From NCBI GenBank assembly GCA_963718615.1, contig OY970368.1, forward strand, positions 3,648,001 to 3,712,000: a stretch of DNA of 64,000 nucleotides. Direction: 5' to 3'. This document shows, piece by piece, positions 55,416 to 62,318 of this stretch (the stretch's first letter is position 1; each line of letters begins with the position of its first letter). A program made the translations under genes and the position numbers. Source of the DNA: an uncultured cyanobacterium. GTDB lineage: Bacteria > Cyanobacteriota > Cyanobacteriia > PCC-9006 > JAAUQQ01. A model generated the notes under the pieces. That model searched no databases. It had not been told where the DNA came from and saw nothing but the letters and a program-made list of their open reading frames with translations.

Positions 55416-56900
55416 CTATTGTCTCTGATCCAGCCAATCCTCTGCCAGATCACACCAAGCTTGCACATAGGGACGATGCTCTGGATTGAGGGGGTCGATC
55501 GTGCTGACTTCGGGATAGGTGGCCTGAAATTTTTCATCCACAGGTTGCCAGGATTCGATTTGCAAGGTCTCACCTCGAACCAGAATGGTATCGCGGCAGT
55601 CTCCAGTTTTTTCTTCTGAGTTGTTAGCTGCACTGATGGGGGGCTGCGATACTGGAGTCGAGATGCGAGGAAGGGCTACTCCGGTTAGTTGCGTTTGCCA
55701 ACGCGATAGGGCTTGTCTACCCAATCCCAGAGTGCCTAAAATTGCGACCGTTGGAAAAAGTAGGTAAAGAAGAATGAACTTGAGCAGGGGTTCAGATGCT
55801 TTTAACGGACGAACCCAGATAGGCCAGATGTCTTGATGGTTGCGGCTATCGCTGGAAGATGAATGAGTTTCGATCGCTTTGCGTCCAATAGCAATTGTGG
55901 CGGCTTGGCTATTAGGGATTTGGTTGATAGGGATTTGGTTGATAGGGATTGTTGAGGGAGCGTTTGAGGGTTCTGTAAGCGCTAAGGGCTGATTGTCTGC
56001 GATCGCACCATAGGGGGTTTTGGGCTTCTCCCAGCGGGGTAAGGGAGCTTGTAGCGTCTTGCACAGAGTCAGCAGTTCTGACGCGGAGGGCCGCTCTTGG
56101 GGATTGGGTTGGAGCATCATCGTCAAGAGATCTCGGAAACTGGGACTAATCTCTAGGGCTTGTTGCCAGGGATGAGGTTGAGCAGCGGTTTTGTTGAACC
56201 AGTCAGAGTTGAGTTGGGGAGAGGTGGGTTGGGTCAGTTGGGTAACAGAGAAATCGTTGGTCTGACCACTCAGTAGAACAAGAAGGGTGACGCCGAGGGC
56301 ATAAATGTCGCTTGCGGGTTCGGCCTGTCCGTTTTCTTGCTCGGATGGGCTATAGCCGGGATGTTGGCCAAGGGCCTTGATCTGGGGCGTTGTGGCAGTT
56401 TTGGCGAGAGCGCGCTTAGGGCCACCGAAGTTAATGAGGACAGGCTTTGCGGTTTCTGCGCAGAAGATTAAGTTATCGGGGCAAATATCACCGTGAGTAA
56501 TTTTGCGGGTATGGAGATAGTCGAGAACCGGGAGAATGTCTTTGAGGAACTGGTGGACTTGAATTTCTGCGAAGGGTCGTTGGAGGTGGCTTTGGTAGCT
56601 GCTGCCGTTGATCCATGTTTGGACGAGGATGCGTTGGGGATGTTGTCCTGGGGTGATTTTGAAGTAGGTACGGTATCGGGCAATCTGGGGGTGGTCGAGG
56701 GCAATGAGGCGAAGGGCTTCGGCTTTAAGGGCAGCTTTGGCGGTTTCAAATTCTTGGGGGTGGGCAAAGCTGCGGGGGGTGAAGAGTTTGAAGGCGTAGA
56801 CCTTTTGGTCTTTTGAGTCTATGGCTTTGATGCTGTAGCCGAAGGCGCTTTTCCCGAGGAGTTCGAGGGACTGGTAGCCTGGAATGGAGGGAAGATTCAT
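55416..56900 (-). CDS. Membrane-anchored Ser/Thr kinase-like protein, probably a pseudokinase
   Basis: HGDICPDN, INFG in place of DFG, GYSPSEQ, SDIYALG; one TM segment. Confidence 0.8.
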   Translation of the reverse strand: MNLPSIPGYQSLELLGKSAFGYSIKAIDSKDQKVYAFKLFTPRSFAHPQEFETAKAALKAEALRLIALDHPQIARYRTYFKITPGQHPQRILVQTWINGSSYQSHLQRPFAEIQVHQFLKDILPVLDYLHTRKITHGDICPDNLIFCAETAKPVLINFGGPKRALAKTATTPQIKALGQHPGYSPSEQENGQAEPASDIYALGVTLLVLLSGQTNDFSVTQLTQPTSPQLNSDWFNKTAAQPHPWQQALEISPSFRDLLTMMLQPNPQERPSASELLTLCKTLQAPLPRWEKPKTPYGAIADNQPLALTEPSNAPSTIPINQIPINQIPNSQAATIAIGRKAIETHSSSSDSRNHQDIWPIWVRPLKASEPLLKFILLYLLFPTVAILGTLGLGRQALSRWQTQLTGVALPRISTPVSQPPISAANNSEEKTGDCRDTILVRGETLQIESWQPVDEKFQATYPEVSTIDPLNPEHRPYVQAWCDLAEDWLDQRQ

Positions 56901-56955: not shown

Positions 56956-57987
56956 TAGCGTTTCTCAGTTGGATGGCTGATAGTAACAGCCATGGGTAAA
57001 CCACCCCACACAGTCTTCAGGTGTGATCGCGTCGAGTGCCTCCGTAATGGCGAGGTCAAGGGCTTCATAGGTGCGAGCCTCCTGGGTACGTAAGAACTCT
57101 TTGACCTTGGACCAGCCGTTCTCAATGGGATTGAAATCAGGAGAATAGGGAGGCAGATAAACCAGTCGCGCACCCGCGGCCTCAATGGCTTCGCGAATCC
57201 CTTCGACCTTGTGAGAGCTGAAATTATCCATTACTACGCAGGCTCCCTTCCAGAGATTGGGCACCAGGATCTGTTGCACATAGGTCGTGAAGGCGTGCTT
57301 GTCATTGCCTCCTTGAAAACTGAAGGCGGCAATAATGCCTTCGATGGATAATGCCCCCACTAAAGTGACATTCCGTCCTTTGTTGACAGGGGTTTTTCCA
57401 TAGGCGCGTTCGCCCTTGGGAGAACGGGCATGGTGACGGGTCATGGCCAGATTCACGCCAGCCTCGTCCACAAAAACTAGGTCTTCAAGCTTGACTTCCC
57501 CGAGCTCAGTCCAAAATTCAGCTCTGAGTTGTTGGACTCGTTCGCTCTGCCGTTCACTGGCGTGGAGAGTCTTTTTTTTCGCGTTAGATTCAGTCGTTGG
57601 GTGATTCGCCCCATCGTTGCTCGACTCACCTTCACCTCTAGCTTTTGCACAACTTGCTCACACAACTCTTCTAAGGTTGCATCGTTGTTGGCTTCAATCA
57701 TTTGAGCTACTTGCAACATTTGAGCTGCATTGAGTTTTGCTCTCGCTCCTCCTCCATGAGCTCTGGACTCACAGCTACCCGATTCTCGGTAACGCTTGAG
57801 TAAACGATGCACCATACTCGCACTGACTTGAAAGCGCTTGGCAATCTGAGGTTGGGAGACGCTCCCTTCCTCATACGCTGCAACAATCCGCTCACGCAAG
57901 TCCAACGAGTAGGCTTTCATTTATGGTTCCTCTGGGTTCTACGGGGCTCCCCATCTTTAGTCTAGGCTACTCATTGGAGAAACGCTA
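56956..57987 (-). mobile_element. IS630-family insertion sequence (1032 bp) with TA target duplication
   Basis: Inverted ends TAGCGTTTCTC / GAGAAACGCTA, each flanked by TA (56954-55 and 57988-89). Confidence 0.92.
56965..57920 (-). CDS. IS630 transposase, two ORFs joined by a -1 frameshift
   Basis: MKAYSLDLRERIV HTH ORF; A-AAA-AAG slip (T8 at 57572-57579) gives RKKKTLHASE...VFVDEAG, VMDN, YSPDFNPIE (DDE). Confidence 0.9.
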
Positions 57988-58016
57988 TATTCCTGAAAAT
58001 CGATTTGATCACGCCC

Positions 58017-58157
58017 CAAAATCTTTTCTAGCATCTCGACTAAAACTGGGAAAAATTCCTACACAGTCTGCCAGACCAAATCCAGATCAACTGCATCATA
58101 TTGATGAATGACGATATTGCTCATAATATCTCTGAGGTGCTGTCTGTCTCGTGTCAT
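58017..58157 (-). pseudogene. HepT/DUF86 toxin remnant
   Basis: MTRDRQHLRDI joined directly to MSNIVIHQYDAVDLDLVWQTV*; central part deleted, premature TAG, Rx4H Arg lost. Confidence 0.72.
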
Positions 58158-58491
58158 AGATGGTTTGGGCGAAGGTCAAGATCTGCTGTTTACGTTCTAG
58201 GTTTCTACTGGTTTCGAGGCCTTTTCTGCTCACGAGATCGACTTTTCGCTGAAAAATTTGGGTGAGTTGGTCTTGCATTTCAGTGAAGTCGAGGAGAGTG
58301 TGGCGGGCGGTGTCGCTGAAGTCAACGAGGATATCGATATCGCTGGTTGTTGGGTTGAAGTCGGTACGAAGAACTGAGCCAAAGAGAGCAAGGCGAGTGA
58401 TTTGCCACTTTTGGCAGAAGGTGATGAGTTTTTTCTCGGGTAGATCAAGCTGAATGGTGGATAAGCAGCGAAATGGGGGGGAGGTTGTCAT
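58096..58491 (-). CDS. Minimal nucleotidyltransferase (MNT/MntA-type antitoxin)
   Basis: LFGSVLRTDF...SDIDILVDF, RKVDLV. Confidence 0.87.
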   Translation of the reverse strand: MTTSPPFRCLSTIQLDLPEKKLITFCQKWQITRLALFGSVLRTDFNPTTSDIDILVDFSDTARHTLLDFTEMQDQLTQIFQRKVDLVSRKGLETSRNLERKQQILTFAQTIYDTRQTAPQRYYEQYRHSSI

Positions 58492-58707
58492 GGTGTTGGT
58501 GGGGTCAGGTCTAACAAGGGCTGACCTAGAGGCTCCTTTACTGGTCTATTGTTTGTTTCAGTTTAGCGTTTTGCTTATTCTAGAGTGTGTCGGTGGAGGG
58601 CCAGCAGCCAGACGTTCACCGAATTTACCAGCATGGCTGCTGGCGGTTGATTTTTGGATCCGGTTACCCCGATCGCCAAAACAGGGCTGTTCTTCCGAAG
58701 AACTGTC

Positions 58708-59361
58708 TTACCAACGAGAAGGATTATCTGGATGGAGTTGGTCTTGTTTCCAGGTTTTGGGATTGTCCAGGATATATCGACGAATCCGCGTCATTGCGGC
58801 CTCGTTACGAATGATATGGTCGTAAAATCGGCGTTGCCAGACGGGAACCCCAGGGGTCTGGCGTAGGTGGTTAATGCGTCTGGTGGTGGTGGATTTGAAA
58901 CCGGCCATCAGCGAAGAAATCGATTTGGGCCGCATGGTTACCCCGTAGGGACGAACTGCGTTCGTCCTGCCTTGGGCGATCGCATGGGCCTGCGCGGACG
59001 AATGGCTGTCCGTCCCTACGGTTGGTACGGATGAATGGTTGGTTGTTCCTACGGCCTGCGCGGACGAACGGCTGTTCGTCCCTACGGTTGGGGGTTGGAT
59101 TTCGATCAGGGCGTGGAAATGGTTGGGCATGATGACCCATTCATGGAATTTGAACGTGGGTCGAATTTGTTTCGATCGCAACCATTCCTCCACAACAATT
59201 TCACCCCACGGGGTGAGATGCATTTCGGCATTTTTGATCGTTCCAAACAGGTTTTGCCGTTGGTAGGCGCAGGTGGTGATGAAATAGAATCCGGCGCTGC
59301 TGTAATCGTGGCCCGACAACCGCATGGAACGACGTTGATGGCGATCGGGGTTGTATGGCAT
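58708..59361 (-). CDS. REP-associated tyrosine (HUH/Y1) transposase, RAYT-type
   Basis: RRSMRLSGHDYS, YFITTC, VIMPNHFHALI, FKS, WQRRFYDHIIR, YILDNP. Confidence 0.88.
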   Translation of the reverse strand: MPYNPDRHQRRSMRLSGHDYSSAGFYFITTCAYQRQNLFGTIKNAEMHLTPWGEIVVEEWLRSKQIRPTFKFHEWVIMPNHFHALIEIQPPTVGTNSRSSAQAVGTTNHSSVPTVGTDSHSSAQAHAIAQGRTNAVRPYGVTMRPKSISSLMAGFKSTTTRRINHLRQTPGVPVWQRRFYDHIIRNEAAMTRIRRYILDNPKTWKQDQLHPDNPSRW

Positions 59362-59708
59362 TGAATTTTTTGATAATTCCCACATTCCCAGAATGCCCCA
59401 CCGCCACCCATGAAAAACGTAGGGACGAACCGCGTTCGTCCGCCAACGCCGACACCAACGCCAACACCAACACCCACGTCAACGCCCACACAATCGCACA
59501 TCCAAAAACCCAACCCCCCCGTAGGGACGAACCGCGTTCGTCCGCCAACGCCCACACCCACGCCCACACCCACGCCCACACCAAAACAATCGCACGTCCC
59601 AAACGATCGCACATCCCAATTGATCCCATCACACCATTGCGACATTTGGAATTGCGCCATACACCTGGACAGGACGAACGGCTGTTCGTCCCTACGGTTC
59701 GTCCCTAC
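58945..59708. repeat. Cluster of GTAG-type REP palindromes (GTAG-GGACGAA-N5/6-TTCGTCC)
   Basis: Copies at 58945(+), 58996(-), 59029(-, degenerate), 59062(-), 59419(+), 59521(+), 59672(-), plus a half copy at ~59698. Confidence 0.88.
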
Positions 59709-59762
59709 GGTTGATTGATAACCAATGGGGCATTGTCGGATGGATTTTGCAAAAAAATTCGA

Positions 59763-59777
59763 TCGCGCTGCGCGCGA
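59763..59777 (-). promoter_or_regulatory. GC hairpin with GCA triloop (DGR-type cis element candidate)
   Basis: Minus strand TCGCGC-GCA-GCGCGA about 75 nt after the kinase-FGE stop. Confidence 0.55.
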
Positions 59778-59852
59778 GGGCGAGAACACCTTAACAAGTT
59801 GTATTTTCAACTAAAAATTGCACAGAGGGCAAAAAGGCAAGAGAGCAAAGGG

Positions 59853-61604
59853 CTAAGTCCTCGGGGCGGCCCACACCACCCGAAAACCGAAGTCGTTGAG
59901 GCGGAGGCCGGGGGGCGCGTTCCCGTTGCGCCGCGCGGAGCGGCAGTACCCCGGACCGCCGAACCAGGAGCCGCCGCGTAGCACATACAACTCTTGATCC
60001 CCAGTCATCCAAGCTGAACCATCCGTTGGCGCTCCATTATAGCTGCCATGCCATCGATCAGCGCACCATTCCCACACATTTCCATGCATGTCATACAACC
60101 CAAAGCCATTGGGTAGAAAACTGCCCACCTCAGTGGTCTGTTCTCGAAACTGGCCCCTGCTGCCTTTGCCGTAGGTGCAGGTGCCGTCGTAATTCACGTG
60201 GCCCGATGTGATCGTTTCGCCAAAGTAAAACGGCGTTGTCGTCCCCGCCCGACAGGCATATTCCCATTCCGCTTCGCTCGGCAACCGATACGCTCGCCCC
60301 GTCTGCTCACTCAGCTTTTTACAAAACTCCTGGGCATCGTTCCAGCTCACACTCTTCACCGGACGCTTCTCGCCTTTGAAGCGTGACGGATTCCCCCCCC
60401 TCACCGCTTCATACTGCGCCTGGGTCACTGCATACTTCCCTAGGCAAAACTCGGGCACCTGCACCCGATGGCGTGGCCGCTCATCGCTACTGGCGCTTTC
60501 CTCTCCATCCGCTGCTCCCATCCAAAACTCACCGCCAGGGATGTACACCATCTCCAGCACAACCCCATTACCCAAATCTTCGATAAACTGCTCCGCCGAC
60601 CGGGTCTCGCGCTCGGTGATCTGGCCCCGTTCATCCATCCGCACTGTCTTAAATCCAAACCGAACAAGGTTGAGGCCGTTGGCGGGGGCTGGGGGCTGGA
60701 CGAACGGCGGTTCGTCCCTGCGGGGTTGTTGGGGTGGCGGTGAATTACGGGGCGACGGCGATTGGGGCGGTTGGGGTTGGGGGATTGGGGCATTTAATAA
60801 TTGCAAAAATTCAGCCATCGTTTGAGGCCGCTGCTCCGGCTCCAGCGCCATTCCCCGCACAATCGCCTTATTCAGCCATCCGCTCAACTGCAGCACATGC
60901 TGTCGAGGATCAACCAGCTTTTGATTCATCATCTTGCGATTGAGACAGGGGGTCGGCGGCTGCCCCGTCACCAAAAAATACAGCGACGCCGCCACCGTAT
61001 AGATATCCAGCGTTGGCCCCACAACCCCCGTCATCTGCTCCCAAGGCGCAAACGCCACATTTAGCGACTGGGTAGAAGCATTGGGCATCACCTCCCGCGC
61101 CAAACCAAAATCAATCAGCATCGCCTGCCTTCGGTCCGTCAGCATCATATTCCCCGGATGGGCATCCCGATGGACCAACCCTTCCCCATGGACCACCCTC
61201 AACGCATCGCCAATTTGCCGAATATAGGCAACCGCTGCCTTTTCCGACAAGGGACCTTGGGTTAGCACCACATCAAATAAATTCTGCCCCTGCACATATT
61301 CCATTACCAGACAGGGTAGCTTTGTTCCAAAACAGGCTTCAAAACAAACATCCTGAACCGCCACAATATGGGGATGTCGCTTCTGACTCAGCCTTGCGAG
61401 CACCCGAGCCTCACCAATAAACTTCTCCACATATTTCTCATAGTCTGGCTCCTTGCGGAGCTTATCGTTGGGCGTCTTGATCACAAGCTGTTGCTCTAGC
61501 AACGTATGGTAAGCGCGATAGGTCACCCCAAACCCACCTTCACCCAAGGTTTCTCGGATGACATACTTGCCACCTTGAATTTTATGACCTCTCGCCCAAA
61601 CCAT
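59853..61604 (-). CDS. Ser/Thr kinase fused to an FGE-sulfatase (C-type lectin fold) domain
   Basis: GEGGFG, VIK, HRDAHPGN, DFG; MVYIPGGEFWMG, RLPSEAEWEYACRAG, GLYDMHGNVWEW, RGGSW...GFRV. Confidence 0.92.
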   Translation of the reverse strand: MVWARGHKIQGGKYVIRETLGEGGFGVTYRAYHTLLEQQLVIKTPNDKLRKEPDYEKYVEKFIGEARVLARLSQKRHPHIVAVQDVCFEACFGTKLPCLVMEYVQGQNLFDVVLTQGPLSEKAAVAYIRQIGDALRVVHGEGLVHRDAHPGNMMLTDRRQAMLIDFGLAREVMPNASTQSLNVAFAPWEQMTGVVGPTLDIYTVAASLYFLVTGQPPTPCLNRKMMNQKLVDPRQHVLQLSGWLNKAIVRGMALEPEQRPQTMAEFLQLLNAPIPQPQPPQSPSPRNSPPPQQPRRDEPPFVQPPAPANGLNLVRFGFKTVRMDERGQITERETRSAEQFIEDLGNGVVLEMVYIPGGEFWMGAADGEESASSDERPRHRVQVPEFCLGKYAVTQAQYEAVRGGNPSRFKGEKRPVKSVSWNDAQEFCKKLSEQTGRAYRLPSEAEWEYACRAGTTTPFYFGETITSGHVNYDGTCTYGKGSRGQFREQTTEVGSFLPNGFGLYDMHGNVWEWCADRWHGSYNGAPTDGSAWMTGDQELYVLRGGSWFGGPGYCRSARRNGNAPPGLRLNDFGFRVVWAAPRT

Positions 61605-61691
61605 TGCAGGACCCCCCAAACGCGCACGAAATACTGACACGCCCGCCATTCTGGCATAGACCCCTTTATTCTTCCCACAAGTCGCAAGTCG

Positions 61692-62318
61692 CTAGAGCCG
61701 GGGCGACAATTCAGTCAAGCCAATCCCAAACAAAAACGACATCACTAACTCCAGGTCAGACGGCACCGCATAGGTATTGATATCCTTATCCACCCGGCGT
61801 GCTCCGCGATCAAACACCCCAAACTTCCAGGTATCCCCCGTCGTCACAGCCCCGTACAACACAGCCGCCTCCGACTCCACCCACTGATCTAGGGCAATTA
61901 ACTCCACCGCAAGCTGCGTAAACCCTCGGGCCAAATCAGAATTTTTCGCCTCGATCACCAACAAATTGCTGGTTGTCGGTACGAAGTAATCAAAGTTTCC
62001 CCGTAGCCAAGGGCTAACCCGCACAGGATATTCAATTTTGAGCGGCACCTTCAGCGCTCGGCAAATCGTTTTCAGGATTGGGAAAATCAAACATTCCCGC
62101 CGAGCCATTTCAGAGGATGGACTCACCAACGCGAGATTTTCTAAGAGCTCCTGCCGCAAGGGTCCAAGGTCAATGGGCAACTGTTGAGGCAGAGCCAACG
62201 ACACATTCTGCAAGGTTACATCCAGTTCCGCCAGAATATCTGACGTGTCAAAGGGCATTTCTGCATACTTGCTGAATGTGTAGGTTGCTGCTGGATCTAG
62301 GATGGGCGATCGCACCAT
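61692..62318 (-). CDS. Conserved cyanobacterial protein with a restriction-endonuclease-like motif
   Basis: NFDY...VIEAK, GFTQLAVELIALD, YGAVTTGDTW. Confidence 0.72.
   Translation of the reverse strand: MVRSPILDPAATYTFSKYAEMPFDTSDILAELDVTLQNVSLALPQQLPIDLGPLRQELLENLALVSPSSEMARRECLIFPILKTICRALKVPLKIEYPVRVSPWLRGNFDYFVPTTSNLLVIEAKNSDLARGFTQLAVELIALDQWVESEAAVLYGAVTTGDTWKFGVFDRGARRVDKDINTYAVPSDLELVMSFLFGIGLTELSPRL

Follow-up and report, generated by a model that had tools for sequence, protein, structure and literature searches.

We analyzed a 64,000-nt stretch of the chromosome of an uncultured cyanobacterium (GenBank contig OY970368.1, positions 3,648,001 to 3,712,000); this whole stretch is called the window, and positions given without a prefix are counted within it. 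A gene on its minus strand encodes a protein kinase joined to a formylglycine-generating enzyme (FGE)-type domain, and the 3' end of this gene is probably the fossil variable region (VR) of a diversity-generating retroelement (DGR). Read along the minus strand, the order is the kinase-FGE gene with its VR, a pyrimidine-rich tract, a GC hairpin, a cluster of repetitive extragenic palindromic (REP) hairpins, a gene for a REP-associated tyrosine transposase (RAYT), the stub of a DGR spacer RNA, and a gene for an MntA-like nucleotidyltransferase. The chromosome (genome G000, contig C1) is 6,095,823 bp long, forms a single contig with no N, and is scored 100% complete; the searches covered this one contig. 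Together with 30 related cyanobacterial genomes, it makes up a set of 31 genomes that were searched.

The kinase-FGE gene and its 3' end

The kinase-FGE gene (59853..61649, minus strand) is an intact open reading frame (ORF) of 598 aa in the ORF list. It contains a Ser/Thr kinase domain at aa 29-263 (60861..61565, minus strand; Pfam PF00069, Pkinase, E 6.9e-34) and an FGE-sulfatase domain of the C-type-lectin (CLec) fold at aa 366-593 (59871..60554, minus strand; Pfam PF03781, E 1.4e-56), and its homologues in the database are named [quoted passage not shown]. The protein forms a singleton cluster, and the homologue search found no close orthologue for a population comparison, the top full-length match being 53% identical. 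The Gly-rich loop, the VAIK-type Lys, and the HRD and DFG motifs are all visible in the translation, and by these motifs the product is a predicted Hanks-type Ser/Thr kinase. Its catalytic loop, HRDAHPGN, deviates from the canonical Hanks kinase loop, and to this extent a preliminary description of the window, made from the sequence alone, was right to call it atypical. Among the top 120 homologues, however, this is the commonest form of the loop (26 of the 97 that have the motif), and a His takes the place of the catalytic-loop Lys in 49 of the same 97 as well as in this kinase.

The nearest solved relative of the FGE domain is PvdO (E 3.6e-45), followed by the Treponema DGR variable protein 2y3c (E 6.7e-27). 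The gene scores far under the cut-offs of the NCBIfam equivalogs PvdO, EgtB, and GldK, and the name FGE is used here for predicted domain membership. The RGGSW...CRSA.R...GFRV frame at the C-terminus is generic among FGE domains and is present in PvdO and in non-DGR paralogues; therefore, any test for a DGR history must rest on the comparison of DNA.

The VR is about 124 nt long (59856..59979, minus strand) and ends just before the stop codon (3 nt); it is supported by comparison with a relic of a template repeat (TR) in the same genome, with the TRs of relatives, and with paralogues. It sits at the 3' end of the gene within the PF03781 domain, which is related in sequence to the DGR protein 2y3c. 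GC content is 73.8% in the last 130 nt of the gene, compared with 57.0% in the gene as a whole and 52.3% genome-wide; the variable codons are of the NNC/NNT type, and the C-terminal peptide RGGSW...GFRV is present. The VR closes with a sequence, CCCCGAGGACT (59856..59866, minus strand), that resembles an initiation-of-mutagenic-homing (IMH) site in a comparison with 16 VR/TR pairs of relatives. Directly 3' of the stop lies the pyrimidine-rich tract (59824..59852, minus strand), which is common to eight FGE paralogues in the same genome and to the VR flanks of relatives. After a gap of about 45 nt comes the GC hairpin found in a scan for terminator-like structures (59763..59777, minus strand), with the stem TCGCGC/GCGCGA, the 3-nt loop GCA, and then a T run; six pairs form the stem, five of them G-C, and it stands about 76 nt from the stop. 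All of the features given in the preliminary description, namely the peptide, the GC-rich end, the NNC/NNT codons, the tract, and the hairpin, are thus present where it had placed them.

The stop-proximal end CCGAGGAC, the pyrimidine tract, and a hairpin with a 3-nt loop recur at 16 VRs in the working DGRs of nine relatives, described below, and matching hairpins with GCA, GAA, GGA, or GTA loops lie downstream of the paralogues in the same genome and of the relatives' VRs. Eight of these paralogues have the end motif and the tract as well as the hairpin. The suggestion that the tract and the short-loop hairpin are flanking elements of a DGR target is borne out by this conservation. The hairpin may act as a DGR target hairpin and/or as a terminator, the latter because a T run comes after it. 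The VR end, the tract, the hairpin, and the ORF are all intact. Elsewhere in the genome, an orphan VR-type gene end of ~42 codons (C1:944546-944669, minus strand) has an IMH-like end, a tract, and a hairpin with a T run; there is no FGE domain upstream of it, and stops precede it.

Template relic and adenine signature

Matches to the reverse transcriptase (RT) profile RVT_1 (PF00078) were found in 18 of the 31 genomes, and many of the matching ORFs are ~370 aa long and directly adjoin FGE genes. Nine RT-bearing loci (L023-L031) were taken as positive controls and compared with themselves for TR/VR pairs. All nine contain such pairs, 16 in number, which are 115-134 nt long and 81-91% identical, with 78-100% of the mismatches at TR adenines. 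The cassette of these relatives is laid out as target(VR), avd, RT, TR, and spacer RNA (Sp). The avd gene is located just upstream of the RT in all nine; the RT, TR, and Sp share one orientation downstream of the target in seven, and the RT is inverted in two. After the stop, the relatives' VRs are flanked by a pyrimidine-rich tract and then by a GC hairpin whose stem has 5-6 bp and whose 3-nt loop reads G-N-A, with a T run after it, and the VRs end in ..AGGAC/GGGAC where the TRs read ..AGCAC/AGTAC. In this system the RT makes a cDNA from the TR RNA, misreading adenines, and this cDNA takes the place of the VR; the GC-rich VR end and the downstream hairpin guide the exchange.

Other arrangements also occur among the relatives. 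At L033 (G018:C33) and L034 (G003:C46), TR-spacer modules immediately precede FGE targets, and neither locus contains an RT; both genomes have DGR RTs elsewhere, the adenine share of the mismatches is 0.69-0.89, and the modules look like ones served in trans. At L032 (6290-6640, genome G016), the 3' end of an FGE gene continues directly as a TR-type end followed by an intact spacer (127 bits), an arrangement that would be the expected product if a VR and a TR had recombined and deleted the RT between them. G016 is a complete genome without an RVT_1 match and is the second RT-less genome in the group.

For a TR in the genome of the kinase-FGE gene itself, the C-terminal 260 nt and the flank of 11 full-length FGE matches (of 12) were compared with the whole genome. 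One non-coding match was found, at C1:5133908-5134003. It lies 1.43 Mb from the window, in the gap between two small FGE genes arranged in tandem. Translated, this TR relic gives a frame rich in Asn codons that lacks a start and is bounded by stops at either end. It matches, at 32 of 33 bases, the template that had been predicted from the end of the gene. Over the first 57 nt, the VR differs from the TR relic at 11 of 15 A sites but at only 1 of 42 non-A sites (Fisher p = 8e-8), and the 3' end can be accepted as a genuine DGR-type variable region, as the preliminary description had proposed. Its expectation of a non-coding copy differing at template adenines beside an RT gene was largely borne out: the copy exists and shows the adenine-specific differences over its first 57 nt, but it does not lie beside an RT.

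The paralogues F5504332, F5131862, F5132766, and F5134147 show the same A-site pattern against the TR relic. Compared with these four directly, the kinase-FGE gene is identical at 40-42 of the 42 non-A sites and at 4-7 of the 15 A sites, and the 150 nt upstream are 65-81% identical. Three other FGE paralogues, F3273042, F4110781, and F5612516, taken as internal controls for protein constraint, have 7-17 mismatches to the TR relic over the same 42 non-A sites. As judged by these substitutions, the pattern in the VR is the classical DGR signature. The adenine-site bias, the 3' VR in an FGE fold, and the IMH-like end with its hairpin together identify the gene, by its sequence history, as a DGR target.

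The relatives' TRs align to the TR relic up to about position 75 in all nine comparisons, and the end segment and the spacer are missing. Because the alignment stops there, mismatches accumulate past 57 nt, and no spacer is attached, we regard the relic as a truncated, decayed TR and not as the cognate template. An intact TR that matches the whole VR and has an IMH*-type end was not found in the chromosome, where the truncated copy is the sole TR-like one. The VR aligns over its full 124 nt to the TRs of all nine relatives, with A-site mismatches at 16-22 of 26-33 positions and non-A mismatches at 12-24 of 88-96 (p 3e-8 to 1e-3; the best is L026), and it is one codon longer than each of these TRs. 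This full-length match indicates that a canonical template, since lost, supplied the sequence of the whole VR. The surroundings of the TR relic (L036, C1:5131000-5136000) comprise three tandem small FGE genes with VR-type ends, the relic being located between the second and the third. The 390-nt gap before it is packed with short dispersed repeats, and the end of the relic and a sequence 37 nt further on form a perfect 15-bp inverted repeat.

Spacer relic, absent machinery, and mobile elements

No Rfam family matched window positions 58000-60200 at E <= 1, and none matched the DGR loci of three relatives at the gathering score; therefore, the spacer RNA was modelled from scratch. The spacers of the nine relatives share a fold of 34 pairs, 14 of which have compensatory changes. 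The covariance model built from them (R1) matches the 6.1-Mb genome once, at 58583..58704 (minus strand; 47.4 bits, genome-wide E 1e-9). This match lies 1.15 kb downstream of the kinase-FGE gene and begins 3 nt past the RAYT stop. Two of nine TR+spacer queries match inside the window through their spacer part, and an nhmmer profile of the nine spacers has its single genome match at 58612-58692 (E 6.2e-4). The spacer relic spans R1 from end to end, with 45 model positions, the inner stem-loop, replaced by 1 nt. R1 was found in 11 of the 31 genomes, G000 included.

The place of this relic indicates a former cassette next to the gene and weakens the view that the gene was a remote target served in trans. 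Given the target-avd-RT-TR-Sp order in the relatives and the spacer stub here, a cassette-adjacent target is the simplest reading. We hold, with a probability of roughly three in four, that the VR is a genuine DGR-written fossil and that the gene was formerly the cis target of a cassette since dismantled. The gene product would be a soluble Ser/Thr kinase with a C-terminal FGE-type lectin domain that bears the VR. The gene would once have stood next to its cassette, and avd, the RT, and the TR would have been lost where the REP cluster and the RAYT gene now lie. The binding surface would be fixed at present, and the protein would be an ordinary sensor kinase of one specificity.

It is unlikely, although it is the strongest of the alternatives, that the VR is a fossil of a gene that was always a remote target, the spacer relic having come from an independent TR-Sp module or from the module of another gene and its closeness being incidental. 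RT-less TR-Sp modules do adjoin targets in relatives (L033, L034, and G017:C317), the other relic of the same genome (5.13 Mb) is of this module type, and remote variable proteins are common in cyanobacteria (PMC7517822). In the RT-less modules, however, the target follows directly after the spacer, whereas here the MntA-like nucleotidyltransferase follows it, with the FGE gene on the upstream side, matching the target-avd-RT-TR-Sp order. Moreover, with about 12 FGE loci in the genome, its sole spacer match would be unlikely to fall by chance less than 1.2 kb from one of them.

With regard to present activity, the PF00078 profile search of the whole chromosome gave 0 matches and 0 candidates for an RT, and tblastn with the DGR RTs of nine relatives against G000 reached a best E of 0.11. 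Two weak RT matches were set aside: one of 26 aa (E 0.95) beside the FGE gene F6033610, and one of 46 aa (E 0.11-0.14), repeated ~13 times in the genome, both being put down to noise or to a repeat family. The genome has no homologue of the relatives' type of Avd (best E 0.74). The single match to the four-helix-bundle family TIGR02436, at 1.88 Mb, was rejected as an Avd; it has no RT, TR, or FGE gene around it and is not similar to the Avd of the relatives. No spacer RNA attached to a TR exists in G000, the single R1 match being detached from the TR. The missing RT and Avd, the truncated TR, and the detached spacer relic make present-day hypervariability unlikely, and since the genome has lost the DGR machinery, the ligand-binding tip, once hypervariable, is now probably frozen.

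The preliminary description had instead presented the gene as a remote target that is diversified in trans today, which is probably wrong in view of the absent RT and Avd, the truncated TR, and the spacer relic 1.15 kb downstream. Such activity would have to come from an unassembled plasmid or prophage that carries an RT together with an intact TR, or from an undetected type of RT. The intact VR end, tract, hairpin, and ORF would suit this idea, as would the assembly of the genome as one contig and the RT-less modules that relatives run in genomes with RTs elsewhere. Nevertheless, neither the profile search nor tblastn with nine close DGR RTs detected an RT, and no Avd of the relatives' type was found; the one TR copy of the chromosome is cut short and not joined to a spacer, the sole spacer copy lacks 45 model positions, and the hairpin, ~76 nt from the stop, is at the far end of the relatives' range. 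We consider a still-active target improbable, and more so than an always-remote fossil. That the gene has no DGR history at all, its C-terminus being a conserved FGE end whose likeness to the repeats reflects protein constraint and GC-rich codon use, agrees with the generic RGGSW...CRSA.R...GFRV frame of PvdO and non-DGR paralogues, but it leaves unexplained the identity at synonymous sites (7-17 of 42 non-A sites differ in the control paralogues and 1 in this gene), the one-directional adenine pattern, the shared non-coding 3' flank, and the spacer relic, and is the least credible explanation.

Several points weigh against the reading of the gene as the former cis target of a dismantled cassette. 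Beyond ~57 nt, the TR relic has many non-A mismatches to every VR, it differs from this gene in length by one codon, and the cognate TR of this VR is not in the chromosome; because the relic fails past 57 nt, the case for the 3' half of the VR rests on a cross-genus comparison. The spacer relic scores 47 bits, against 71-160 bits in the relatives (except for 38 and 53 bits in G003), and it could be left over from a separate TR-Sp module, since RT-less modules exist in relatives. The search covered a single-contig chromosome, and an RT could be carried by an unassembled plasmid or phage. The term "frozen" follows from the lost machinery and not from reads, and there is no close orthologue by which to date the loss. 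The sole read set matched was a seagrass metagenome, with 5% of sampled words, which is uninformative on this strain; its pieces are short, mostly below 95% identity, and fall on conserved FGE motifs and REP-like sequence, with no contig across the VR.

The space between the gene and the spacer relic is occupied by mobile elements, in accordance with the RAYT/REP locus that the preliminary description had placed next to the gene. The RAYT gene (58708..59385, minus strand) matches NCBIfam NF047646 with 77.5 bits (cut-off 80) in two stretches, as well as Pfam Y1_Tnp. The match is split in two because two REP hairpins, found by pattern match (58949-58967 and 59062-59081), sit inside the RAYT ORF, which is open despite them. 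Three further REP hairpins were found by pattern search between the gene and the RAYT (59423..59691), and another lies in the Pro-rich linker of the kinase-FGE gene (60698..60717), in frame and read as RRDEPPFV. The pattern consisted of GGACGAAC, a 2-6-nt loop, and GTTCGTCC, with at most 1 mismatch. It has six matches in the window, with 0 expected; an earlier form with a fixed 5-nt loop gave no matches, the loops being actually 3-4 nt long. In two paralogous FGE genes (C1:5505159 and 3273926; one of the paralogues is F5504332), a linker REP is found as well, and its distance from the stop is almost the same (about 282-302 codons), which indicates that a hairpin from a mobile element has been retained as part of the coding sequence.

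Of the 53 REPs in the genome, 12 are found no further than 1 kb from one of the 12 FGE/VR-type loci; these loci make up 0.6% of the sequence, and 0.31 REPs would be expected there. Once the RAYT cluster and inherited copies are allowed for, this count corresponds to about six independent events. REPs lie in frame within the linkers of three FGE genes, and a REP flanks a VR in one relative. The only other RAYT of the genome (C1:3277107-3277616, 33% identical) is ~2 kb upstream of another multidomain FGE gene, so that neither RAYT gene is more than about 2 kb from an FGE gene. It is conceivable, although we think it doubtful, that REP/RAYT elements are mechanistically tied to DGR target loci and that they dismantle cassettes and "freeze" VRs. 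If REP/RAYT, acting on single-stranded hairpin DNA, did prefer to land beside DGR target hairpins, cyanobacteria would have in it a repeatedly used way of fixing a selected binding specificity and shedding the mutator.

Two other groups of genes were observed nearby. A 208-aa ORF (61692-62318, minus strand) precedes the kinase-FGE gene by 43 nt in the same orientation; neither Pfam nor NCBIfam gave it a match at E <= 1. Further downstream, an IS630-type transposase (56965-57920, minus strand) is split into a helix-turn-helix ORF and a DDE_3 ORF, and it adjoins the MntA-like nucleotidyltransferase (58096-58491) and a second Ser/Thr kinase (55416-56900).

Implications and comparison with known systems

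The sequence at its own 3' end suffices to identify a DGR target, even if the genome has lost its RT. Surveys that start from the RT miss such fossil targets, which number here about eight genes and one orphan fragment. The locus offers a concrete picture of how a mutator is retired: avd, the RT, and the TR are gone, REP and RAYT elements probably stand in their place, a spacer stub is left, and the target and its cis elements are intact. Both the protein class and the decay of DGR loci have already been described, and this example adds detail to them but no new principle.

Previous studies indicate that proteins combining a kinase with a CLec domain are the commonest DGR targets of cyanobacteria, remote targets among them (Vallota-Eastman et al. 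2020, PMC7517822). The same study reports IS200/IS605 transposases near nine variable proteins of six species and a paralogue, all3226, that retains traces of TR-VR homology but has no RT close by, and it suggests that the components of diversification are removed once a variant has been selected. Our reading fits this idea of diversification being withdrawn when a useful variant has become fixed (PMC7517822). The kinase-FGE protein resembles the proteins of that study in its N-terminal Hanks-type kinase, its C-terminal FGE/CLec domain with a 3' VR, its dispersed paralogues, and the IS200/IS605-family transposases near it. It differs from the cases of that study in three respects: the whole chromosome, and not the locus alone, is without an RT and Avd; there are two separate non-coding relics, a truncated TR 1.43 Mb off and a deleted spacer beside the gene; and the protein has no close orthologue (best full-length match 53%). 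A cyanobacteria-only RT lineage has been described (Wu et al. 2018, PMC5758913). We found no report, in the parts of the literature covered, of a cyanobacterium whose genome has retained a VR gene family while lacking an RT altogether, and the supplements of PMC7517822 and PMC10907252, which lay outside the search, may list such cases.

Compared with the cassettes of the relatives (L023-L031), the kinase-FGE locus shares the full-length alignment of VR and TR, the VR end, the tract, the hairpin with its 3-nt loop, and the fit to the spacer model. In contrast to them, it has no avd, RT, or intact TR, its VR is one codon longer, and ~45 nt separate the tract from the hairpin. Retrohoming in phage BPP-1 depends on a GC hairpin/cruciform that lies 3' of the VR, and inverted repeats of this kind are reported to be a conserved requirement for it (Guo et al. 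2011, PMC3240598); a GC-rich VR end with a downstream GC-rich inverted repeat is found here as well. The BPP-1-type phage hairpins have stems of 7-10 bp and 4-nt GRNA loops and lie 4-34 bp from the VR (PMC3240598), whereas the hairpins of this gene and of the relatives have stems of 5-6 bp and 3-nt G-N-A loops; the one described here, a putative target hairpin, stands ~76 nt from the stop with a T run after it.

Transposons and MITE-like elements (miniature inverted-repeat transposable elements) are known to degrade DGR loci (Dore et al. 2024, PMC10907252), and a DGR remnant occurs in Anabaena sp. 90 (PMC7517822). As in these degraded loci, transposons and MITE-like repeats are located within the DGR loci of the genome studied here. 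In the degraded loci of those reports, redundant components or a lone RT remain, whereas in this genome the RT has been lost and the targets and their cis elements have been kept.

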